DNA of 32,000 nucleotides from Acholeplasma laidlawii PG-8A (GCF_000018785.1 NC_010163.1:930001-962000); one strand, 5' to 3'. Positions 4,989 to 31,596 are shown, numbered from the stretch's first letter. Made by a program: numbers and translations. Notes: generated by a model not told the origin, from the letters alone.

Positions 4989-7553
4989 TTAATTTTTACC
5001 TTTCAAAAACATTTGTACCTTGTCTAGTGCCTGTGTACCACCTTGAGCAAAATCAGGTTTACCACCACCACGACCATCAAGTACTTTGTTTAACTCATTA
5101 ATGACGTTTCTTGCTTCATTTACTGATGATTTTACTAAGTAACTTGCCTTGTCTTCAGAGATGTTTAATAAGACAACAGTATCTGCCTTTATTTTATCAT
5201 ATAAGACATCAATGAGTGGTTTTAATGATGACTGTGGTAAGTTATCACTATAAATATAGGTAGTTGGTTCAATTGTTTTAGGTATAAATGTATCTGCTTG
5301 TAAAATAATTTGATCAATTAATTTAGCTTCAAGTTGTTTTTCAACAACTTTAGATTCATTTGAAATATATTGATTATAAAGTCTTAGATTGATGATATCT
5401 TGATAAGATCCAGTTAATTCTGGTAATGGTTTTAAATTATGATTTTCATCAAGCGATTTAATTTTTTCAATATGTTGATGAATCATATCAAGTAAATTTT
5501 GAACTATTTTTTTAACTTGTGATAATACTTGACCAGTAATAGCTTCAAATCTATAAGTACCTGAACCAATAGATTCTACAGAAGTAATCATAAAGTTTTT
5601 GATGTCTGATGTGTTTTTAACATGTGTACCACCACAAAACTCCATACTCCAAGATCCTACATCAACTACTCTAACAATATCACCATATTTTTCACCAAAT
5701 TGCATCGCTGCACCTAATTTTTTAGCTTCATCAATTGGTAAGACGTGTGTTACTACATCAATTTGTTCTTTTATTTTTTGTTGAACGATTTTCTCTACTG
5801 TTAAAATTTCTTCATCTTTGATAGTTTCATAATGGTTAATATCAAACGTTAGTTTTAAATCACCATTATAAGAACCTTGTTGTTTCACGTGACTTCCTAA
5901 CGTATCTTTTAAGGCTTGATTAAGTAAGTGTGTCGCTGTATGATTTTTCATTGTGTGATGGCGTTTGTCCTGATTGACAATACATAATACTTCATCACCT
6001 TCAGTAAATGCATCTGTTTCAATTAAGTGTAGATGTTGACCATGTGGTAATTTAATGACATCTCTAACAACTAGACCATTAATTGATCCTGTGTCTGATA
6101 TTTGACCACCACTATTTGCATAAAATGGTGTTTTATCTAATACGATACCTTGATCAAATACTTTGATGACTTTACTTTCTGTTTGAAGGTAGTCATAACC
6201 TACAAATTCACTAGGTACATCAAAGTTTAATAAAGCCTCATCTTGACCCTTCATAGAGTGTGTTACTTTTCTAGCATCTCTACTTCTTGATTTTTGAACT
6301 TCAAGTGCTTCATTAAATCCTTTAATATCTACAGTGATACCATGTTCTTCTGCATATTCAATTGTTAATTCTATTGGGAAGCCATAAGTATCATAAAGTT
6401 TAAATGCATCCTCACCACTTAACTTACCATCTTTAATGGATTGAAGTAAGTGTTTTTCACCATCTAGGATGGTTGAAAAGAATTTTTCTTCTTCTTTTAA
6501 AATAATTTTCTTAACAATGACTGCAGTTTCTATTAAGTTTGTGTAGAAGTTTGACATCATATCAACGACTGTATCTACAAGTAAATGTAAGAATGGTGCA
6601 TCAAAACCAATAGATTTACCATACTTCACCGCACGGCGTAGGATACGACGTAATACATAACCTCTACCTTCGTTTGAAAGGTTCGCACCATCAGAGATTG
6701 CAAATACTAACGTTTTAATGTGGTCAGAGATCACTTTGAATGCCATTTGTCCATCGTATTTTACACCACTTAAAGACTCTACTTTAAGAATCACTGGATA
6801 GTGTAGGTCTGTTTCAAAGTTTGTCTTAGTACCTTGTAGTACACAAGCAAATCTTTCTAAACCAGCACCGGTATCAATATTCTTATTTGGTAGTTCTTTA
6901 TATTCAGATCTCTTGAGTTTAGGATCTGCATTATATTGTGAGAAAACAATATTCCAAATTTCAATAAACCGCTCATTTTCAATATCATCACGAATAAGTT
7001 CAGGACCTCTTAAATCATAAGATGTGCCTCTATCAAAAAAGATTTCAGTATCCGGACCCGATGGACCAGCTCCAATTTCCCAGAAGTTACCTTCAACAGG
7101 GATTAAATGATCTTCTTTGACACCTAACTTTAACCAAGTATTTTTAGCTTCCACATCGGTTGGATAATATGTCATATAAAGTTTATCTAATGGTATATCA
7201 AAGTATTTTGGACTTGTTAAAAGTTCGAATCCAAATTCAATTGCTTCTTTTTTAAAGTAATCACCAATACTAAAATTCCCCATCATCTCAAAAAATGTAT
7301 GGTGTCTTGCAGTTTTTCCAACATTATCAATATCATTTGTTCTAATACTTTTTTGGATGTTTGTAATACGTTTTGATTTCGGTGTTTCTGTACCATCAAA
7401 ATATTTCTTTAATGGAGCTACACCCGCATTAATCCATAAAAGTGTAGGGTCATCTACAGGAATTAATGATGCAGAGGGTTCAATAATATGCCCCTTATCT
7501 TTAAAAAAGTTTAACCAAGTTTGTCTGATTTGTTCACTTGTCATATATTTCAT
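4989..7553 (-). CDS. alaS: Alanine--tRNA ligase
   Basis: 854 aa. Class II core (HHTFFEMMGNFSIGDYFK), editing-domain HTATHLL and CGGTHV, C-terminal DHHA1-like tail. Preceded by an Ala T-box. Confidence 0.98.
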   Translation of the reverse strand: MKYMTSEQIRQTWLNFFKDKGHIIEPSASLIPVDDPTLLWINAGVAPLKKYFDGTETPKSKRITNIQKSIRTNDIDNVGKTARHHTFFEMMGNFSIGDYFKKEAIEFGFELLTSPKYFDIPLDKLYMTYYPTDVEAKNTWLKLGVKEDHLIPVEGNFWEIGAGPSGPDTEIFFDRGTSYDLRGPELIRDDIENERFIEIWNIVFSQYNADPKLKRSEYKELPNKNIDTGAGLERFACVLQGTKTNFETDLHYPVILKVESLSGVKYDGQMAFKVISDHIKTLVFAISDGANLSNEGRGYVLRRILRRAVKYGKSIGFDAPFLHLLVDTVVDMMSNFYTNLIETAVIVKKIILKEEEKFFSTILDGEKHLLQSIKDGKLSGEDAFKLYDTYGFPIELTIEYAEEHGITVDIKGFNEALEVQKSRSRDARKVTHSMKGQDEALLNFDVPSEFVGYDYLQTESKVIKVFDQGIVLDKTPFYANSGGQISDTGSINGLVVRDVIKLPHGQHLHLIETDAFTEGDEVLCIVNQDKRHHTMKNHTATHLLNQALKDTLGSHVKQQGSYNGDLKLTFDINHYETIKDEEILTVEKIVQQKIKEQIDVVTHVLPIDEAKKLGAAMQFGEKYGDIVRVVDVGSWSMEFCGGTHVKNTSDIKNFMITSVESIGSGTYRFEAITGQVLSQVKKIVQNLLDMIHQHIEKIKSLDENHNLKPLPELTGSYQDIINLRLYNQYISNESKVVEKQLEAKLIDQIILQADTFIPKTIEPTTYIYSDNLPQSSLKPLIDVLYDKIKADTVVLLNISEDKASYLVKSSVNEARNVINELNKVLDGRGGGKPDFAQGGTQALDKVQMFLKGKN

Positions 7554-7574: not shown

Positions 7575-7788
7575 AAATAATAAAGTCCTTAAAAGATATA
7601 AAATCTTCTAAGGACGAAAAATTCGCGGTACCACCTTAGTTCACATTATCATGTGCACTCATGTTTAAATCCGTTATAGCCGGAAATACTTTTGCTCCTA
7701 AGACAGCTTTCATCAAACCTAATTATCACCTTTCACCATCCAGTGATTCTCTTCTACAATTAGTACTTAATTACTCATCTTAATCATT
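7575..7788 (-). promoter_or_regulatory. T-box leader (alanine, GCU specifier) with intrinsic terminator, controlling alaS
   Basis: Read on the minus strand. K-turn-like AGAUGAGUAA (7780-7771); AG bulge AGAGA (about 7752-7748); distal loop UGGAUGGUGAAAG. Specifier-loop UGAUGAAAGCUG has GCU at 7707-7705; a second GCU lies at 7680-7678. T-box sequence AAGGUGGUACCGCG is the complement of 7624-7637. Terminator GUCCUUAGAAGAU/AUCUUUUAAGGAC (7615-7585) is followed by a U-rich tract. Confidence 0.9.
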
Positions 7789-7796
7789 GCATATTC

Positions 7797-23732: not shown

Positions 23733-24266
23733 TTACACTACTTTATCTCTGGTTTCTTCAAAATACTCTTCAAGTAAATAATTAGCCCATCTATTCGCTT
23801 CAATTTCTAGACTTCTATCCTTTCTTTTGTCTATTTCCATAAAAAACCATTGATAATAATGTGTTAATTCATGAGTTATTGTAAACAAAATATTCTTCAT
23901 TTCAGTATCTTTTTTATTGATTGGAACATAGTGATATTTACCAGTTGCAATCCAAATAAATGGATTTTTTTTAATATGATCTTCGTAATAATAAAAATCT
24001 CCAATAGTTTTTTTTGTTGAGTTTTCCTTCTCAAAAAATTCATTGTTAGACTTGATGAAAATGGTACATCTAATAGGAAAGTAGTATCTCCTTCTCAAAA
24101 ACTTAATAAAGTCGATAATTTTTTCTCTTAATTCCTGGACGATATATTCTGAAAACTTCATTCGCAGTCCATTTTCACTTCCATTGAAGTATATTTTCTT
24201 AAATTCCTTATCTATCCACACTTTGTTGATCACCTTTTCTTTTACCAACATTTTACTAATCATCAT
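23733..24266 (-). CDS. ImmA/IrrE-like (COG2856-type) HExxH zinc metallopeptidase-fold protein
   Basis: C-terminal THELTHYYQWF, then about 15 aa later SLEIEANRWANYLLEEY (HExxH ... ExEANxxA pattern). First ATG taken as start; the ORF track begins at an upstream TTG (24272). Confidence 0.5.
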   Translation of the reverse strand: MMISKMLVKEKVINKVWIDKEFKKIYFNGSENGLRMKFSEYIVQELREKIIDFIKFLRRRYYFPIRCTIFIKSNNEFFEKENSTKKTIGDFYYYEDHIKKNPFIWIATGKYHYVPINKKDTEMKNILFTITHELTHYYQWFFMEIDKRKDRSLEIEANRWANYLLEEYFEETRDKVV

Positions 24267-24331
24267 GGTCAATAATCTTAAAAACTATCCCTATAATGAT
24301 ATCTAGTAAAAAAGGTATAACACTTAATCGA

Positions 24332-25028: not shown

Positions 25029-25586
25029 CTATGATACTAATATGTTTAACAAGTTCATACCTGAAAATATTTGAATTGATACCATTTTCTTGTACTTTAT
25101 GTTCTTTGTAGTTATTATATCATCTATCGTCCACTCTTCCTTACTTGCTTTAATCTTTTCTTCTAGAATTTTTAGTTCATATGCCTTGTCACTATATTCT
25201 CTACCGAAGTGTTTAGTTAATAAATACACAGCTGAGTATTTATCAGCTGGTATATGTCTCGTAGTTCTTACAATCTTTCTTCTTGGTGCTCTAGTTTTAC
25301 CAGCATCATCTATATGCTGTGTTTCTTCTGTAACATCATAGCCTATCGCTCTTTTATAAAGTGCACCCGTTAGATCCATCTTTAAATTAATCTTTGCTTC
25401 AAATTGTGCTTTTTCAATTTCCGGATACTTTCTTTTTAGTCTTGTAAAAGTATCTTGAGTAATTCCTAAGTGCTTACACATTTCTTTTTGTGTGACTAAC
25501 TTTCTTGAACACTCTTTTATAAATTCAAAGACTTCATCTAGTTTTCTTGTTTCAACCCAAAGTTGATATGTGTCTTTATTTGCCAT
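25029..25586 (-). CDS. Phage terminase small subunit-like HTH protein (orphan)
   Basis: N-terminal HTH (TQKEMCKHLGITQDTFTRLKR), then ALYKRAIGYDVTEETQHIDDAGK...RKIVRTTRHIPADKYSAVYLLTKHFGREYSDK. This matches, from memory, the ALxKRAxGYxxxE ... KHxPPDxxAxxFWLKN pattern of Firmicute phage TerS proteins. Confidence 0.6.
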   Translation of the reverse strand: MANKDTYQLWVETRKLDEVFEFIKECSRKLVTQKEMCKHLGITQDTFTRLKRKYPEIEKAQFEAKINLKMDLTGALYKRAIGYDVTEETQHIDDAGKTRAPRRKIVRTTRHIPADKYSAVYLLTKHFGREYSDKAYELKILEEKIKASKEEWTIDDIITTKNIKYKKMVSIQIFSGMNLLNILVS

Positions 25587-25897: not shown

Positions 25898-25940
25898 TAA
25901 CAAAAAGAGGATCATCACCTCAGTGAATCACCTCTTTTAT
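25898..25940 (-). terminator. Intrinsic terminator closing the XRE/ZnR/SPFH/lipoprotein/147-aa operon
   Basis: Outer 8-bp helix AAAAGAGG/CCTCTTTT (25903-25910 / 25931-25938) plus inner TCAC/GTGA helix. UUUUUGUUAG follows on the minus strand. Begins 4 nt after the stop at 25944. Confidence 0.6.
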
Positions 25941-25943
25941 CAT

Positions 25944-26387
25944 TTATGGCTTTAACAGTTTACTCACATATAACAGTTCTGTTTCTGAATAGTTTTCTGA
26001 ATAATAATAGAGATAAACATAACTTTCAAAATACTTTGATTTTAACATTTCAGTAGTTTTATGATATTTATGTTTTTCTGTCATCCGAATAAATTCAACA
26101 TCGTCATTTAATGTAACAAAAATTTTAATGTTTCTCATTGCACCATTATCTATATCTGAAAGGACTTTTTCAAGATCACTTTCTTCAACAACTCTCAGTA
26201 AAATTTGACGACTATTAAGGACCGTTTTTTTGCTAATATTTTCTAAATTTTGATGATTATAATCATCAACTATAATCAAAATCTTACTATTTTTGATACT
26301 CAAAAACAACTTTTCTTTTAACACCTTTAAACAAGTGTCATTTACATCATTTTTGATTATACTATAATTTAATGTCTTATATCTCAT
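25944..26387 (-). CDS. Hypothetical protein, 147 aa (last gene of the operon)
   Basis: ATG preceded by AGGAGAA. 42-nt gap from the lipoprotein gene. No family recognised. Confidence 0.55.
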   Translation of the reverse strand: MRYKTLNYSIIKNDVNDTCLKVLKEKLFLSIKNSKILIIVDDYNHQNLENISKKTVLNSRQILLRVVEESDLEKVLSDIDNGAMRNIKIFVTLNDDVEFIRMTEKHKYHKTTEMLKSKYFESYVYLYYYSENYSETELLYVSKLLKP

Positions 26388-26429
26388 AACAATTCTCCTA
26401 ATATTTTGTATCAGTTCATAAATAAAAAA

Positions 26430-28385
26430 TTAGAAAGAAACATCTAAGATTGTAATCATCAAGGCATCAAATTTAGATTTTCCATTCGTGTCAACTATTT
26501 TACTAATGAGGATACTCATGTATTTATCATCATAATCATTTGGAGTCAAATATGTATAATACTTAATTATTTCTGAGTGCACCTTTTCATAACCATCTGA
26601 TGTTATAATGACAAATGCAATTTCTATTTCTAGATAATGAATAGTTTCTAAAGAACCATTATAAACCTGATAACCCCATCGTCCATAACTACCAACAGGT
26701 GTATAACCAATGTCAAGAGAAACATCAATATTATCCATCACTTCCATTTCATATGTCTTATAATATTTATTTGGAAGTAATAATAACTCATCCCAGTTCT
26801 CGTTAAAATCACTTATTTTAAATGTTTTGCCATAGGTTTCAGATAAAGTAATTAATATTCCCTCCTCAATTCCTTTTGTAAGACTATCGAATAATTCTTC
26901 AATAAATAAATAATCTTTTTTTGAAACATTACCAGAATTACTTTTATATAGAAAATCTCTTTCATAATAGTAATTATATTTATCAACATAGGAGAATTGA
27001 GAATTTACTAAATCCATGACAATCATAAACTCATATCCGTTTAGATTATAATAAAATCCATATGCACCTTCTTTGTTATAGATAGCTTGACTATTAGAAT
27101 CATTGGATAAAAATTGAATGTATCCCTCACTATCATTTACAATAAAACTGTTGCTATTTGAAATATTAGTATAAAAGTCCCATATTAGTTCATATGGTTT
27201 TAGTTCTTTATAGTTTGCTACTATTTGGATGTTTTTTAATAAGGTGTATGGAAATATCAAAGGTTCATTTTCTAAAGACCAACCTGTAAAAATAAATCCA
27301 TTTTTTCTAGGTTCTTCTAAGTTATAAACAGTATCCGCATAATCAAAAATAATTTCGGTGTTTTCTAAAACTCCACCCTTTGTATCAATTGCTATTGTAT
27401 ATTTTGTTTTCTCTTCATGAATAATAGTTTTATACGTTTGATTACCAGATACTGCCTGAACTCCAGGAGACCAACCTCCAAACACATAAGTGATGGCGAC
27501 AGTAGGTTCATTGACAGGTACTACTCCATCAAAACTAGGTATAATTCCATATTCCACGTTTTCATCAATTTGTAAAACATTATCATCACTGTCTACCCAA
27601 GTTATAGTGTATGTTTTTAAGGTTTCTTTGAAAACTGCAATGTACTCTGTATTATCATTTGCTGGTACAACATTTGGGGACCAACCAATAAACTCAAAGG
27701 AATATTGAGAAGTTTCGTTTTTTACAGGCGTTATTCCATTATATTCTGGTGTAGCCCCATTCATAACGTCATTATCAGTTTCTAAAATTGATCCATTATC
27801 ATTTTTCCAACTTATCGTAAAAGTATTAGCAACTTCACTAAATATTGCAGTATATGTTTGTTCGCCATTTACCACAGTCATTACTGGTGACCAGCCGTTA
27901 AACTCATATCTTAATTCATTTGTTGATTTTTTTGAAGGAATAGTTCCAGTATAATTTGGTGTTACTCCCCATAATACATCTTCAATTTTAATAATTGTTC
28001 CATCATCATATTGCCATGTTATTTTATATTTTTGTTTTGTTGGATCATCAGAAGCTTTCATTGAATATGTTACAACGATAGAAACATCCTTCTTATAAAT
28101 ATCCCCACTTTTAAAAGTCTCTGAACCACCAATTTTAACACTTTTAGTCGTTCCTTCTTTTGTTATCCCCCAAAAGATATCATAAACTGCTTCAGTTTTA
28201 ATATTTGTAAAACCCCATACTTCAAGCTGCTCTACGACATCCTCATAATTTTTTCCAGCAAGTGATGTTGCTGACTCTCTTACTTTTACTTCATCTTCTG
28301 CAAGTTCAATGCTATCTTCACAACCTACTAAGACAAAAGCTGATAATATCAACAGTAATACAGTTACTATCCTTAGTTTTTTCAT
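26430..28385 (-). CDS. Surface lipoprotein with four Listeria-Bacteroides (Flg_new/InlB B-repeat type) repeats and an unknown 260-aa C-terminal domain
   Basis: Signal peptide plus lipobox (LSAFVLVGC). Four repeats of about 68 aa share Y-I-W...G...P.Y.G..P.K......Y.F.GWSP......N..Y.A.F. Confidence 0.75.
   Translation of the reverse strand: MKKLRIVTVLLLILSAFVLVGCEDSIELAEDEVKVRESATSLAGKNYEDVVEQLEVWGFTNIKTEAVYDIFWGITKEGTTKSVKIGGSETFKSGDIYKKDVSIVVTYSMKASDDPTKQKYKITWQYDDGTIIKIEDVLWGVTPNYTGTIPSKKSTNELRYEFNGWSPVMTVVNGEQTYTAIFSEVANTFTISWKNDNGSILETDNDVMNGATPEYNGITPVKNETSQYSFEFIGWSPNVVPANDNTEYIAVFKETLKTYTITWVDSDDNVLQIDENVEYGIIPSFDGVVPVNEPTVAITYVFGGWSPGVQAVSGNQTYKTIIHEEKTKYTIAIDTKGGVLENTEIIFDYADTVYNLEEPRKNGFIFTGWSLENEPLIFPYTLLKNIQIVANYKELKPYELIWDFYTNISNSNSFIVNDSEGYIQFLSNDSNSQAIYNKEGAYGFYYNLNGYEFMIVMDLVNSQFSYVDKYNYYYERDFLYKSNSGNVSKKDYLFIEELFDSLTKGIEEGILITLSETYGKTFKISDFNENWDELLLLPNKYYKTYEMEVMDNIDVSLDIGYTPVGSYGRWGYQVYNGSLETIHYLEIEIAFVIITSDGYEKVHSEIIKYYTYLTPNDYDDKYMSILISKIVDTNGKSKFDALMITILDVSF
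27207..28028 (-). repeat. Tandem array of four repeat units of about 205 nt each, encoding the Listeria-Bacteroides repeats (residues about 120-393)
   Basis: Units: YKITWQYDDG...YTAIFSE, FTISWKNDNG...YIAVFKE, YTITWVDSDD...YKTIIHE and YTIAIDTKGG...QIVANYKE. Repeats are diverged at the DNA level. Confidence 0.7.
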
Positions 28386-28459
28386 TATTTTATTCGTATA
28401 CTCTTTTTTAATTTTAATTATTTTGAGTACACTGTCCCCTTTTTATTTTTTATTTTTCC

Positions 28460-29752
28460 TTATAATTTTGGAGGAAATAATCCTGCAAGTTCAATTTGAG
28501 AACTTGCTTTTTGCCATTCTGACATTCCCTCTTTCCAAACTAAACTATCAGAAGTTAGAGCTCCTGTAGCCACCATTGTTCTTAAATTATTAATATCAAA
28601 CGGTCCTGTTGGTTTACCATCTTTGGCTACATGAAATTGAGTTACCGGAACTGACGGTGGTGTGCTTTGTCCATTATTTTTGTGATCTAGTGATTGGTCC
28701 ATCACACCAGCAATATTTTTACCGACAGCAGATCCAACAGCTATACCAGCCATCATTGAGACTGGATTAAATGCTGTACCATGACCGCCTAAGTCAACAT
28801 TGCCTGCTCCATTTTCGCCCATTTTACCTAATGCTTCTGCACCAGCAACACCAACTTCACCACTGATTTGTGTTTGATAAGCTCCAATATTAGTTTGTCT
28901 AGTTGTCATTCGTTGAGCATATTGTTCCTCTTCTCTCTTGATTCTTAGCTCTTCTTGATAGTTAAGAAGGTCTGTTTCTGCTTTACCTGTTGAAATATCT
29001 TTAGTAACCCTCTTGAGTTCAATATATGCTTCGTTATCTTTATCAACCTCAACTGCACTTAAATCAATACCAGTTACAGATATAGCAAAAAGATCATCTA
29101 GTCTATCACCAACATACAATTCAACATCTTGATTAATTAAATCTATCTTTGATTCAATTGCAATAACTGGAATATCGTGTTTAGAAGGAGCATTAGTGAC
29201 AACCTCTTTTACATACCGTGAAACTGATGCGTTAATTTTACTTTTTAGTTCTTCTATACTGAAATTTGCGAGTTGATGAAATAAAACGAACCTTTTATAA
29301 TCTTTTATTTTGAAAGTTAATGATCCTCTAACTGCAACTGGAACTTGAAAATCAGGAAATCTAGAATCCACCACATCAAAATATGGAATACCAAATCTAA
29401 CTTGTATAGCTTCAGCTAAGTTTAGAAAGAATACTTCAGCTTGGAAAGGTGTATCACCCTCATACCATAATCCAATAATAGATGATAAAATAGGAAAGTT
29501 TTTCGTTTTTAAAGTTCCATCATATGGACCTACAATATAATCTACCTTGGTGCCGTCTTCTTGTTTATAAAAAAAGGCTGCTACCTCACCAGTTTTAACT
29601 CTAAGTACTGAATTTGTTCTTATGGCTGTTTCCCTTTTTACTTCACCTTGACTAGTTCCACTGGGATGCCACTTCCATACTAAATAATTTGATTGATCAC
29701 AACGGATAACATCACTAAACCCACTTTTTTTCTTTCTATTGAATATCCCCAC
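28460..29752 (-). CDS. SPFH-fold protein of the YdjI/COG4260 ('virion core protein-like') family with Gly/Ala-rich segment and C-terminal GYF_2 domain
   Basis: GTG start gives the family-typical MGIF N-terminus, 8 nt after AGGAGG. The N-terminal 250 aa resemble COG4260 (VIRCDQSNYLVWKWH, NFPILSSIIGLWYEGDTPFQAEVFF). Residues 289-351 are Gly/Ala-rich (MMAGIAVGSAVGKNIAGVM). Residues 371-426 are FHVAKDGKPTGPF...LVWKEGMSEWQKA, which is GYF_2-like. Confidence 0.8.
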   Translation of the reverse strand: MGIFNRKKKSGFSDVIRCDQSNYLVWKWHPSGTSQGEVKRETAIRTNSVLRVKTGEVAAFFYKQEDGTKVDYIVGPYDGTLKTKNFPILSSIIGLWYEGDTPFQAEVFFLNLAEAIQVRFGIPYFDVVDSRFPDFQVPVAVRGSLTFKIKDYKRFVLFHQLANFSIEELKSKINASVSRYVKEVVTNAPSKHDIPVIAIESKIDLINQDVELYVGDRLDDLFAISVTGIDLSAVEVDKDNEAYIELKRVTKDISTGKAETDLLNYQEELRIKREEEQYAQRMTTRQTNIGAYQTQISGEVGVAGAEALGKMGENGAGNVDLGGHGTAFNPVSMMAGIAVGSAVGKNIAGVMDQSLDHKNNGQSTPPSVPVTQFHVAKDGKPTGPFDINNLRTMVATGALTSDSLVWKEGMSEWQKASSQIELAGLFPPKL

Positions 29753-29790
29753 ATTTAATACCTCCTTGTATTTTCTTATTTTTGTTAAAA

Positions 29791-30564
29791 TTATTCTTCA
29801 TCTTCTTCTTCGTCTTCTTCATTTTCAGTATTTTTGACTTTAGATTTTGATTTATCTTTTTTTTGTGTTGCCCAATATAAAATACTTATTCCTAACATAA
29901 ATATAGTCATTGAAATTGTACTCAACATGTAATAAGGTGAATCACCATCACCAGACTCGGAACCTTTAAAGCCTCCCCATATCATTAACACTAATGATAC
30001 AACAGTAACAACTGAGCCAATCAAATACCGCCATGCATTATTCATAAAACGTTTAAAAGTTTTACTTCTATATTGGTTCATTGTTTTTTTATATAATTTA
30101 TCAATATATTCAAATTCAAATGTATTACCAAAAGATATTTTAGCTTTGTGATACGTTTGATCTACTTTTGCCTTCCAAGCTTCTTCACATTTTGAGTCTG
30201 TTGTTAGATTTGAAACTGCTAAGATAAAGAATTCATATATATCTTCCTTTGTGTTTGGAATATAAAAATTACTTATCAATTCATTTTTCTTTTCTATAGA
30301 CTTGGTTGACCCGATTTTATCAGCGAAATCTTTGACTACATTATCTAAATTAGAACCACGAAGCTCATATCCACAATCTTTACATTTGTGTTCAAATGCA
30401 TTTAAATGAGCACCACAATTCGGACATTTGTATATTTTCCCTTCAAATAATTTAATTCTTTTATTTTCTGAGGATTGCTGATTAATAATTACCACTTGTT
30501 TACCACACCCAGAGCAAAATTTCGAACCCTCTGATATTTGATTACCACAATTATTACAAAACAT
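29791..30564 (-). CDS. Double zinc-ribbon membrane protein (two CxxC-x-CxxC ribbons, helical middle, 2 TM helices, acidic tail)
   Basis: FCNNCGNQISEGSKFCSGCG and YKCPNCGAHLNAFEHKCKDCG. TM helices WRYLIGSVVTVVSLVLMIWGGF and YYMLSTISMTIFMLGISILYWA. C-terminal ENEEDEEEDEE. SD is GAGGGA. Confidence 0.75.
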   Translation of the reverse strand: MFCNNCGNQISEGSKFCSGCGKQVVIINQQSSENKRIKLFEGKIYKCPNCGAHLNAFEHKCKDCGYELRGSNLDNVVKDFADKIGSTKSIEKKNELISNFYIPNTKEDIYEFFILAVSNLTTDSKCEEAWKAKVDQTYHKAKISFGNTFEFEYIDKLYKKTMNQYRSKTFKRFMNNAWRYLIGSVVTVVSLVLMIWGGFKGSESGDGDSPYYMLSTISMTIFMLGISILYWATQKKDKSKSKVKNTENEEDEEEDEE

Positions 30565-30568
30565 ATTC

Positions 30569-30796
30569 TTATCCCTCTTTTTGTTGATATTTAATAATTT
30601 TTACTGCATCACAAATATCACCGATATTACAATCTAGATATTCGCAAATTCTAAGTAGTACAGAAAGGGCAACTTCTTCATTTCTTCTAAGTTTAGTCAT
30701 TGTTCCGGTTGCAATATTAACCTCAGTCCTAAAATCAATTTGCGAAATATCTTTTTCTATGAGTAAAATCCATAGTTTTTTATAACTGATTTCCAT
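30569..30796 (-). CDS. XRE-family helix-turn-helix transcriptional regulator (75 aa)
   Basis: HTH region ISQIDFRTEVNIATGTMTKLRRNEEVALSVLLRICEYLDCNIGDI, typical of small Firmicute XRE/HTH_26-type regulators. First gene of the operon, 4 nt before the ZnR gene. Confidence 0.75.
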   Translation of the reverse strand: MEISYKKLWILLIEKDISQIDFRTEVNIATGTMTKLRRNEEVALSVLLRICEYLDCNIGDICDAVKIIKYQQKEG

Positions 30797-30829
30797 ACGA
30801 CAGTATCCCCTTTCTTTCTTTATACTCTA

Positions 30830-30858
30830 ATAATATCATATTAATAAACTGATAACAA
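30830..30858 (-). promoter_or_regulatory. Candidate promoter of the XRE operon (TTGTTA-17-TATTAT)
   Basis: Minus strand: TTGTTA (30858-30853), 17-nt spacer, TATTAT (30835-30830). SD AAAGGGGA lies 8 nt before the ATG at 30796. Confidence 0.45.
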
Positions 30859-30876
30859 TACGAAATTAATGTTTAT

Positions 30877-30892
30877 TCGCAAGAACTTGCGA
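30877..30892. promoter_or_regulatory. Perfect palindrome TCGCAAG-AA-CTTGCGA upstream of the XRE operon promoter (candidate operator)
   Basis: Read directly from the sequence. It lies 19 nt upstream of the putative -35 and 13 nt downstream of the insulating terminator's U-tract. Confidence 0.45.
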
Positions 30893-30904
30893 TATTATCT
30901 CCTT

Positions 30905-30949
30905 AAAAACATAAATAAAGCTTTCTAATTCTATTTGAATTGGAAAGCT
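30905..30949 (-). terminator. Second (insulating) terminator between the DUF1643 gene and the XRE operon
   Basis: 13-bp stem with one mismatch, AGCUUUCCAAUUC/GAAUUAGAAAGCU (30949-30937 / 30931-30919), followed by UUAUUUAUGUUUUU. Confidence 0.65.
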
Positions 30950-31033: not shown

Positions 31034-31064
31034 TGTATAAAGAAAAAGTCACCAAAGTGACTTT
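31034..31064 (-). terminator. Intrinsic terminator immediately after the DUF1643 gene
   Basis: 8-bp stem AAAGTCAC/GTGACTTT (31064-31057 / 31052-31045) overlapping the stop codon, followed by TTTTCTTTAT. Confidence 0.65.
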
Positions 31065-31596
31065 ATAATTTATACTGTTGTTTTATATCAAACTCTTTTA
31101 AAGAGCTGTTATCAATAGATACATATAGTGGATGTTTAGGATGACCACTTTTATTTTGATCTAAACACATCCATGTACAATTATACTTAACTGATAATAA
31201 ATAAATTTCCTTTAAGGCTTCACTTAAATAATTTCTTTTTTCTATCAGATTTCCCCAACCAGCTATTAAAACACTACTTTGATTTGATTTTAATATGTTT
31301 TCGATTTCTCTAATGTTTCTTTGATAATATTGATCATTTGAATTGAAGTGCATTCCATTTGGATTGGTATCTCGTTGTGGATATATATTCAACATAATCC
31401 AACTATCATTATTTTGCTTTCTGGCTAATTTAACAACATTTTTAACAGTATTATCAAGTTTATTCGGCTCTGCTGTACTTGGGTTAACTCCAAAAAATAT
31501 AAGAGGTGATTTACCCTGAACTCCTAAAACATAACGTGCTGCATTGTCATTTTCTTTTATATAAATCCATTTACTCAAACTATTCATATTTATCAT
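31063..31596 (-). CDS. DUF1643 domain protein
   Basis: 177 aa with family hallmarks FFGVNPSTA, LIAGWGN and KSGHPKHPLY. Confidence 0.8.
   Translation of the reverse strand: MINMNSLSKWIYIKENDNAARYVLGVQGKSPLIFFGVNPSTAEPNKLDNTVKNVVKLARKQNNDSWIMLNIYPQRDTNPNGMHFNSNDQYYQRNIREIENILKSNQSSVLIAGWGNLIEKRNYLSEALKEIYLLSVKYNCTWMCLDQNKSGHPKHPLYVSIDNSSLKEFDIKQQYKL

Follow-up and report, generated by a model that had tools for sequence, protein, structure and literature searches.

Five consecutive open reading frames (ORFs) lie on the minus strand within a 32,000-nt stretch of Acholeplasma laidlawii PG-8A DNA (GCF_000018785.1, NC_010163.1:930001-962000; this whole stretch is hereafter called the window). From 5' to 3' they encode an XRE-family regulator (X), a zinc-ribbon transmembrane (TM) protein (Z), a protein with an SPFH and a GYF_2 domain (S), a lipoprotein and a 147-aa orphan (Table 1). 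An earlier note on this DNA, made by a model from the sequence, had taken the five genes for one undescribed envelope-spanning system under the control of X. The layout it described was borne out exactly: successive ORFs are separated by 4, 38, 74 and 42 nt, a sigma-70-type promoter and the perfect 16-bp palindrome TCGCAAGnnCTTGCGA (TCGCAA-N4-TTGCGA) were both located upstream of X, and the folding energies of two tandem terminators before the cluster and one behind it (z-scores -2.5 to -3.1) confirmed hairpins with T-tracts. As judged from other genomes, the conserved unit is X-Z-S with an optional modular lipoprotein, not five genes.

Relatives of S were collected by a one-genome-per-species scan, in which at least 337 genomes encoded one, and the best 80 of these 337, together with loci from exact-protein look-ups, were analysed, some 100 loci in all. 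The cassette loci come from Acholeplasmataceae, Izemoplasmatales, Erysipelotrichaceae, many Clostridia, Streptococcus and Gardnerella. With the window proteins as tblastn queries, S was matched in 85/85 related loci, Z in 81/85 and X in 69/85; the lipoprotein was matched in 8/85, via its N-terminus or repeats only, and neither the orphan nor any other window gene was matched in any of the 85. The X proteins of the 69 loci are 71-88% identical, Z lies directly upstream of S in 81/85 loci, and the gene order is X-Z-S with intergenic gaps that are mostly shorter than 30 nt. The number of Z paralogs differs between loci. All-against-all clustering of 1459 neighbouring ORFs gave X, Z and S as the only conserved families, the next family being present in 9 loci. 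Since the first three genes were found together in approximately 80 independent loci, their clustering is not due to chance. Collectively, these comparisons show X, Z and S to constitute one conserved cassette with its own conserved, predicted operator and promoter. The proposal of a conserved five-gene system thus failed: the co-occurrence across genomes that it called for was found for Z and S, along with X, but mostly not for the lipoprotein and not at all for the 147-aa family. No published description of the cassette was found in the literature library that was searched.

The 147-aa protein had no family match in Pfam, NCBIfam, PHROGs or PADLOC, and a HMMER search of 1.84 billion representative proteins returned itself and one 28%-identical protein only. 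It is therefore a true orphan, as had been claimed, but its supposed membership of an operon-encoded system did not hold, because no homolog was found in any related locus. Other A. laidlawii assemblies carry the ORF along with this island, and it is probably co-transcribed with the cluster, of which it appears to be a local passenger and not a conserved component.

The two upstream terminator hairpins would shield the cassette from the DUF1643 gene upstream. The cluster had also been said to contain no internal hairpin plus U-tract; this is strictly correct as regards the U-tract, but a stable hairpin exists within the 3' end of the S gene, which marks the end of the conserved core and could have a weak attenuator role. 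Between the S and lipoprotein genes, promoter-like hexamers were observed as well as an inverted repeat of 8 bp whose long loop is A-rich (z -5.6), and a clear Shine-Dalgarno sequence was not seen 5' of the lipoprotein ATG. Given these signals, the lipoprotein may be expressed in part independently.

Table 1. Genes and signals of the cluster and other features in the window (window coordinates)
Feature	Position	Strand	Remarks
X (XRE) ORF	30796..30569	minus	75 aa, first gene of cassette
Z (zinc-ribbon TM protein) ORF	30564..29791	minus	257 aa
S (SPFH+GYF_2) ORF	29752..28460	minus	430 aa, GTG start
Lipoprotein ORF	28385..26430	minus	651 aa
lipoN domain	28295..28062	minus	~78 aa, lipoprotein aa 31-108
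147-aa orphan ORF	26387..25944	minus	last ORF of cluster
sigma-70-type promoter	30858..30830	minus	TTGTTA-17-TATTAT, TG-extended -10
16-bp palindrome	30877-30892		candidate operator, centre ~-61.5 from inferred transcription start
Upstream terminator 1	31064..31045	minus	hairpin + T-tract, -9.1 kcal/mol
Upstream terminator 2	30949..30919	minus	hairpin + T-tract, -11.8 kcal/mol
Final terminator	~25938..25901	minus	3' of last ORF, hairpin + T-tract, -14.1 kcal/mol, z ~-3.0
Hairpin within S gene 3' end	28507..28485	minus	-15 kcal/mol, z -3.97, no proper U-tract
S-lipoprotein intergenic region	28386-28459	minus	8-bp inverted repeat
DUF1643 gene	31063-31596		upstream of the cassette
185-aa HTH protein gene	25029-25586	minus	just downstream of the cluster
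179-aa protein gene	23733-24272	minus	HExxH motif (ITHELTHY)
T-box leader	7607-7796	minus	103 bits
Alanyl-tRNA synthetase gene	4989-7553		downstream of the T-box leader

Regulator, operator and promoter of the cassette

X matched the Pfam family HTH_26 (6e-17; 62 bits against a cut-off of 22), and its best NCBIfam match was VanU, at 73.4 bits and under the equivalog cut-off of 150. By these profile scores it is best classed as a small XRE-family regulator of the HTH_26 type that is VanU-like but outside the VanU equivalog.

The motif TCGCAA-N4-TTGCGA was found within 250 nt upstream of the X start exactly in 26/65 loci, with at most one mismatch in 48/65 and with at most two in 55/65, against a background of 0.0011 per 250 nt. 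The remaining 933 kb of the loci contained no exact copy and four copies with at most one mismatch. One exact copy is present in the window, where a search for further copies gave only an unrelated two-mismatch site at chance level. The palindrome is a predicted operator that is conserved across phyla, and this conservation bears out the earlier suggestion that the cluster has a dedicated XRE regulator.

Once the sequences were anchored on the palindrome, a sigma-70-type promoter was recognised downstream of it in the relatives, and the spacing between operator and promoter was measured in the 37 loci with a good promoter. The gap between palindrome and -35 element was 7 nt in two loci, 18 nt in four (the window included), 27-28 nt in 28 and 39 nt in three, and no intermediate gaps were found among the 37. 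Taking the start of transcription to be 7 nt after the -10 element, the operator centres lie at about -50.5, -61.5, -71.5 and -82.5, positions that share one helix face and are always upstream of -35. This is the arrangement usually seen with class-I activators and not with promoter-occluding repressors. The location of the operator upstream of -35 at helically phased distances thus suggests activation rather than simple repression, and the reading of the palindrome as a simple repressor operator was not supported.

In one clade, the spacer between the -35 and -10 elements is a simple-sequence repeat whose length varies between genomes: (CT)7-11 in L003, L022 and L027-L029, (TA)8 in L014, and T21-22 in L017 and L021 (L numbers designate loci). 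A spacer of variable repeat length is the classic layout of a phase-variable promoter, and expression of the cassette accordingly looks phase-variable in this clade. L023 was also listed among the loci with a repeat spacer, and an assembly gap follows straight after the T tract in L021. The window promoter itself has no simple-sequence-repeat tract.

Controller (C) proteins of restriction-modification systems are small XRE autoregulators whose logic is suited to cassettes that establish themselves in new hosts. X resembles the C proteins and VanU in that a helix-turn-helix (HTH)-only protein of about 75 aa is encoded first in the operon, with a palindrome just upstream. The C proteins have paired C-boxes that overlap -35, whereas the cassette has a single palindrome at one of the four positions given above.

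Proteins of the cassette and their known relatives

The SPFH and GYF_2 domains that had been assigned to S were confirmed by Pfam (Band_7_1, 7.5e-15, aa 41-242; GYF_2, 1.6e-16, aa 374-422), and the SPFH fold was also confirmed by a Foldseek search with an AlphaFold2 (AF2) model, which matched stomatin, HflK/C, flotillin, prohibitin and QmcA (E 5.6e-7 to ~1e-5). The model gave a confident SPFH core at aa ~100-250, a long coiled-coil helix at 241-296 and a confident GYF domain, the latter matching that of Myxococcus xanthus GltJ (PDB 7z3c, E 5e-11). A Gly-rich hydrophobic segment (~288-350; ~288-368 in the model) is highly conserved and has low AF2 confidence. No TM anchor was found in S, either by sequence or in the model, and the modelled protein is shown as an SPFH fold with a GYF domain and no membrane anchor. 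Among the 3147 matches to S, the best 120 all have PF13421 and PF14237 (identity 57-81%). Since these 120 homologs share the same architecture, the Gly-rich segment and GYF_2 are family features; they are not local gains, as had been supposed when S was said to have acquired a glycine zipper and a GYF_2 domain. Invariant PPxxP and FPP motifs are carried by S itself, and a proline-rich candidate ligand for the GYF domain was not evident in the alignments of X or Z.

A second SPFH protein of 466 aa, with Band_7_1 and a C-terminal zinc ribbon (the YdjI-like architecture), is encoded at ~19073-20473 of L003 (10738-12138 of L005). L003 and L005 belong to one Bacilli metagenome-assembled genome, in which this gene follows the cassette at a distance of about 8 kb. 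Since both are encoded in this genome, two types of SPFH protein coexist in it.

Z matched Zn_Ribbon_1 (1.3e-10) and DZR (1.7e-7) in Pfam, and the zinc-ribbon and TM character claimed for it was confirmed. Z, whose family numbers 562 proteins, is made up of two zinc ribbons, a conserved cytosolic four-helix domain, a TM hairpin and a charged tail. The cytosolic domain carries the conserved motif NFYIPNTKEDIYEFFILAxSN…EAWxAKLEQTYHKAKLSFG, and a short conserved outer loop, GSESGDxDSP(F/Y)Y, lies between the TM helices. The AF2 model of Z has a helical domain with pLDDT >82 over aa 80-230, and a fold search of the PDB matched no solved structure resembling it. The family is heterogeneous, with 1-4 TM segments and 0-600 residues beyond the membrane. 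In the A. laidlawii contig LZGE01000006.1 (L097, 5828-6600), the 257 aa of Z are split between two predicted ORFs (161 and 96 aa) while the other island genes are intact; this split Z may be a frameshift pseudogene.

The lipoprotein consists of a signal peptide with a lipobox (LVGC), an N-terminal domain that we call lipoN, four repeats (aa ~118-390) and a unique C-terminal domain of 260 aa. The Flg_new family of Pfam was matched in one stretch at 26.1 bits, just below its gathering threshold (GA) of 27; four repeats of ~68 aa with F-x-G-W are nevertheless legible, and a hidden Markov model (HMM) of the repeat matches the protein internally. Residues 5-111 matched phrog_29396 in PHROGs. With an iterative HMM built from residues 21-125, lipoN was detected on lipoproteins encoded right after S in the window and in L001, L070, L071, L089, L091 (two copies) and L098/99, and fused after the TM part of Z in L002, L007, L011, L043, L049, L053, L056 and L064. 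This split-or-fused pattern links lipoN functionally to the cassette. In ten further members of the Z family, DUF6591-like domains occur in tandem on the outer side of the membrane. The comparisons thus show two placements of a predicted extracytoplasmic domain (lipoN or DUF6591): as an outer extension of Z, or on a separate lipoprotein whose gene comes right after that of S. A common fold of lipoN and DUF6591 was considered and rejected (hhalign probability 12%). PASTA signals in lipoN are weak (Pfam PASTA in 3/14 members, best E 9e-4, none in the window copy), as is the match to the PASTA kinase structure PDB 3m9g (E 0.07).

Beyond lipoN, the lipoproteins diverge. The middle repeats were found in the window, L001 and L003 only, the 260-aa C-terminal domain was found in no other locus, and the regions after lipoN are unrelated between loci, being elsewhere RCC1 repeats, DUF4839 or unknown sequence. 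In the closest relatives of the cassette, the fourth gene encodes an RCC1-repeat lipoprotein and there is no orphan. The repeat lipoprotein of the earlier note therefore stands in so far as its four repeats are readable and lipoN recurs, but the Flg_new repeats, sub-threshold as they are, and the 260-aa domain are strain-specific. The lipoprotein seems to belong to the system in part, with a recurrent lipoN and locus-specific C-terminal parts, and the idea of an envelope-spanning module gained support from the domain fusion that ties lipoN to the system.

Bacillus subtilis YdjI belongs to Pfam Band_7_1/COG4260. YdjI is a soluble protein whose membrane localisation depends on YdjG/YdjH (PMC8581546); in YdjG, two zinc ribbons precede a YpeB/NTF2-like domain and a TM segment (PMC11237479), and SamG-SamH-SamI has been described as sensing stress, with an effect on transcription (bioRxiv 10.64898/2026.02.06.704340). 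From its domain content, YdjG/YdjI (SamG/SamI) appears to be the closest known system to the cassette, since in the PspA-YdjGHI (SamGHI) cluster a TM-less Band-7 protein is likewise encoded beside a two-zinc-ribbon membrane protein (PMC8581546, PMC11237479). The cassette differs in several respects. YdjI ends in a zinc ribbon, and S instead ends in GYF; YdjGHI is under sigma-W control, whereas the cassette has its own XRE protein and operator. The cassette is also, unlike PspA-YdjGHI, mobile and patchily distributed, with a modular external lipoprotein or ectodomain. The scanned ORFs of the window gave no match to PspA_IM30 or TPM, and neither a PspA-type nor a TPM-type (YdjH) family is among the recurrent neighbours of the 80 loci; PspA and YdjH are thus missing from the window, as the earlier note had stated, and also as conserved neighbours.

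With the SPFH cage proteins (stomatin, HflK/C, flotillin, prohibitin, QmcA-YbbJ), S has in common the SPFH alpha/beta core and the long coiled-coil helix. It differs from them in that it lacks an intrinsic TM or hairpin anchor as well as an NfeD or FtsH partner, and in its additional conserved Gly-rich segment and GYF domain. The GYF_2 domain of S is homologous to the GYF domain of GltJ. In the GltJ type, zinc ribbon and GYF domain are joined by a flexible linker in one polypeptide, whereas in the cassette they are divided between the products of two adjacent genes, Z with the ribbons and S with the GYF domain; the MglA/MglB/AglZ context of GltJ is not present around the cassette, and X and Z have no obvious proline-rich ligand. 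In bacteria, approximately 44% of GYF proteins are associated with a zinc ribbon (PMC11135422).

Genomic setting and mobility

The A. laidlawii cluster is part of an island of ~13 kb between an ABC transporter and a HAD hydrolase, and the rest of the window outside the island consists of housekeeping genes. The island further contains insertion sequence (IS) fragments, S-adenosylmethionine (SAM)-synthetase and HNH fragments, DUF1643, and TerS-like, ImmA-like and DUF6560 genes. The 185-aa HTH protein encoded just downstream of the cluster matched the terminase small subunit phrog_309 (1.4e-13), and the IS, HNH and SAM-synthetase fragments lie just past the window (L094). Together with DUF1643, these genes suggest a degraded remnant of a prophage or mobile element, which agrees with the earlier placement of the locus in an island with phage-derived genes. 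The 430-aa S protein shows about 99.5% identity to an annotated A. laidlawii protein, and the same five-gene locus is kept in at least four A. laidlawii assemblies, LS483439.1 included. In a second A. laidlawii strain, a different allele (S 67% identical) lies at a different site, beside Abi_2 and Rep_trans.

Other genes near the locus deserve mention in their own right. The 179-aa protein, encoded in the same island, weakly matched a transcriptional regulator of PHROGs as well as capP of PADLOC (E 3.7e-4), and looks like a fragment of an ImmA/IrrE-like metallopeptidase. Short pieces of SAM synthetase (S-AdoMet_synt_C, S-AdoMet_synt_M) were seen close to the cassette in A. laidlawii (L094, 3692-3997) and again in the closest metagenomic relative (L098, 8780-9061), where ParB-N6_N4_Mtase and Cas2 are also nearby; the shared fragments may be the trace of a common ancestral element. 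Among the three otherwise identical contigs L086, L087 and L088, each from a different sample, the orientation and neighbours of a Resolvase gene close to the cassette differ (~12.5-14.8 kb), which suggests that this region, next to Big_2 surface-protein genes, is invertible or shuffling. The T-box leader that precedes the alanyl-tRNA synthetase gene is a common kind of element with no relation to the cassette.

Relatives at 50% identity or more extend to Streptococcus and Gardnerella, and the settings of the cassette vary. In some loci it lies directly beside rumA-like or guaA genes at insertion edges; in others it is flanked by a tyrosine integrase and TnpV, closes a prophage tail module and is followed by AbiEii, occupies a HipBA-bearing island between uvrC and tig, or adjoins PycTM, FRG and AAA-helicase genes. 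The recurring non-core neighbour families are TnpV, rumA, integrase, ABC and MatE, and PtuA/AbiEii/ZorD-like matches were also obtained among the neighbours. Families were scanned in 145 of the 324 flanking genes collected; several loci adjoin abortive-infection (Abi), toxin-antitoxin (TA) or defence genes and others have housekeeping neighbours, in counts that have no genome-wide baseline. A tblastn search of 50,697 phage records with S gave one match, which does not count as evidence for carriage of S by a phage, the record being an UNVERIFIED metagenomic scaffold with ABC-transporter genes. Plasmids yielded distant SPFH proteins only, with 25-27% identity to S. From these settings, the cassette appears to be horizontally mobile, riding on integrative elements and variable islands.

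No model of PADLOC-DB v2, the candidate PDC systems included, was matched by any of the five proteins (E<=0.01), and no functional assignment beyond domains was obtained for them from PADLOC, NCBIfam or PHROGs.

Possible function and significance

The chances are, in our estimate, about even that the cassette is a mobile, self-regulated, membrane-spanning SPFH module that guards the membrane against phages, bacteriocins and other stress. In such a module, S would form an oligomeric ring or cage that Z tethers to the cytoplasmic side of the membrane, in the way that YdjG/YdjH anchor YdjI in B. subtilis, and an external domain, which is borne by the lipoprotein in the window, would couple events at the cell surface to the S scaffold. 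X would bind the palindrome on one helix face upstream of -35 and activate its own operon, a positive feedback that could be modulated by the Z/S complex, and the GYF domain and zinc ribbons would be protein-recruiting or switch elements. The likely role of the module would be that of integrative-element cargo that monitors the membrane and protects it against attackers. A scaffold or sensor is favoured by the high conservation and the absence of an effector domain, and a role in conflict is favoured by the mobility, the TA/Abi neighbours, the hypervariable surface parts and the phase-variable promoters.

Several points weigh against this proposal. The protein-protein contacts within the cassette are all ones that we infer, and positive autoregulation by X is deduced from geometry alone. 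A recognisable external module is present in only 21/82 loci, and although the loci with no X match are mostly truncated contigs, about eight of them have room upstream and still no XRE gene. The central domain of Z is modelled as four helices, in contrast to the NTF2-like domain of YdjG (PMC11237479), and homology of Z and YdjG beyond the zinc ribbons is unproven, YdjG having been compared by its published description. Finally, the patchy distribution, the TA/Abi neighbours and the seemingly phase-variable promoters would fit conflict or defence at least as well.

An alternative is anti-phage abortive infection or exclusion, in which the variable ectodomain of the lipoprotein or Z would sense the phage, S or its Gly-zipper-like segment would damage or seal the membrane, and X would supply plug-and-play regulation. 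We regard it as possible, though on the doubtful side. It accounts for carriage by integrative elements and variable islands, for the patchy distribution across phyla and for neighbours such as Abi_2, PycTM/FRG/AAA helicase, AbiEii at a prophage end, HipBA and PtuA/AbiEii/ZorD-like genes; the lipoprotein built of a conserved anchor domain and unrelated heads, the variable number of Z paralogs and the simple-sequence-repeat promoters of one clade point the same way. It is harder to reconcile with the lack of any PADLOC match and of any recognisable enzymatic or pore-forming effector, and with the identity of X (71-88%) and S (50-80%), which is unusually high for immune genes. The cassette is, moreover, essentially absent from sequenced phages and plasmids, many loci have housekeeping neighbours, and enrichment of defence genes is unproven, their counts having no genome-wide baseline. 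A broader form of the idea, that X-Z-S with or without the lipoprotein is a widespread, unrecognised SPFH-based immunity or contingency system of Firmicutes and their relatives, can be put forward only tentatively. Equally speculative is its assignment of parts, in which the hypervariable surface lipoprotein or Z ectodomain would be the sensor of phage or of some other attacker of the envelope, a sub-membrane SPFH-GYF cage the transducer or effector, and X a positively autoregulating switch that is phase-variable in some lineages. If true, this would be a defence architecture without counterpart among the described systems.

That the cassette serves the element that carries it, by entry exclusion, element maintenance or lysogenic surface conversion, is improbable: insertion edges by rumA/guaA, the position between integrase and TnpV or at the end of a prophage tail module, and the encoded surface lipoprotein speak for it, but the element types are many and unrelated, some loci have no recombinase nearby, and regulator and operator travel with the cassette and not with the element. 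Still less credence is due to one obligate system of all five genes, with the whole Flg_new lipoprotein and the 147-aa protein as components. Tight gaps, one promoter and one final terminator, and the joint presence of the five genes in at least four A. laidlawii assemblies, would be expected of such a system; the orphan, absent from all related loci and nearly unique among 1.84 billion proteins, the unique C-terminal domain of the lipoprotein, and closest relatives that carry an RCC1-repeat lipoprotein as fourth gene and no orphan all contradict it, and the comparative data already appear to have largely refuted it. A routine PspA-associated cluster of the ydjGHI type, with pspA and ydjH elsewhere or adjacent in relatives, broadly resembles the cassette in that a membrane protein with two zinc ribbons accompanies a Band-7 protein lacking TM segments (PMC11237479, PMC8581546) but is very improbable, because a pspA gene adjacent in relatives, which the earlier note had named as evidence against a separate system, was looked for around the 80 loci and no PspA/TPM family recurs there (the largest non-core family occurs in 9), S ends in GYF and not in a zinc ribbon, and the cassette is mobile and regulated by its own XRE protein.

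SPFH proteins are universal, and their functions in bacteria are poorly understood. To our knowledge, the only relative of the S family that has been studied is YdjI/SamI, which is tied to PspA. The present analysis indicates that a zinc-ribbon membrane protein and an SPFH protein are also paired in an autonomous, mobile, self-regulated unit without PspA, which spans hundreds of species, from gut Clostridia, Erysipelotrichaceae and Streptococcus to the wall-less Acholeplasma, and presents a modular domain to the outside. With its three or four genes, this unit is small and transferable, and it lends itself to work on the signals and the action of an SPFH scaffold. The unusually clean regulatory region, with one operator at four helically phased positions, is suited to the study of how activation by a minimal XRE protein depends on the face of the helix. 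Should an anti-phage or anti-bacteriocin function be established, the cassette would represent a new class of membrane-based immunity.

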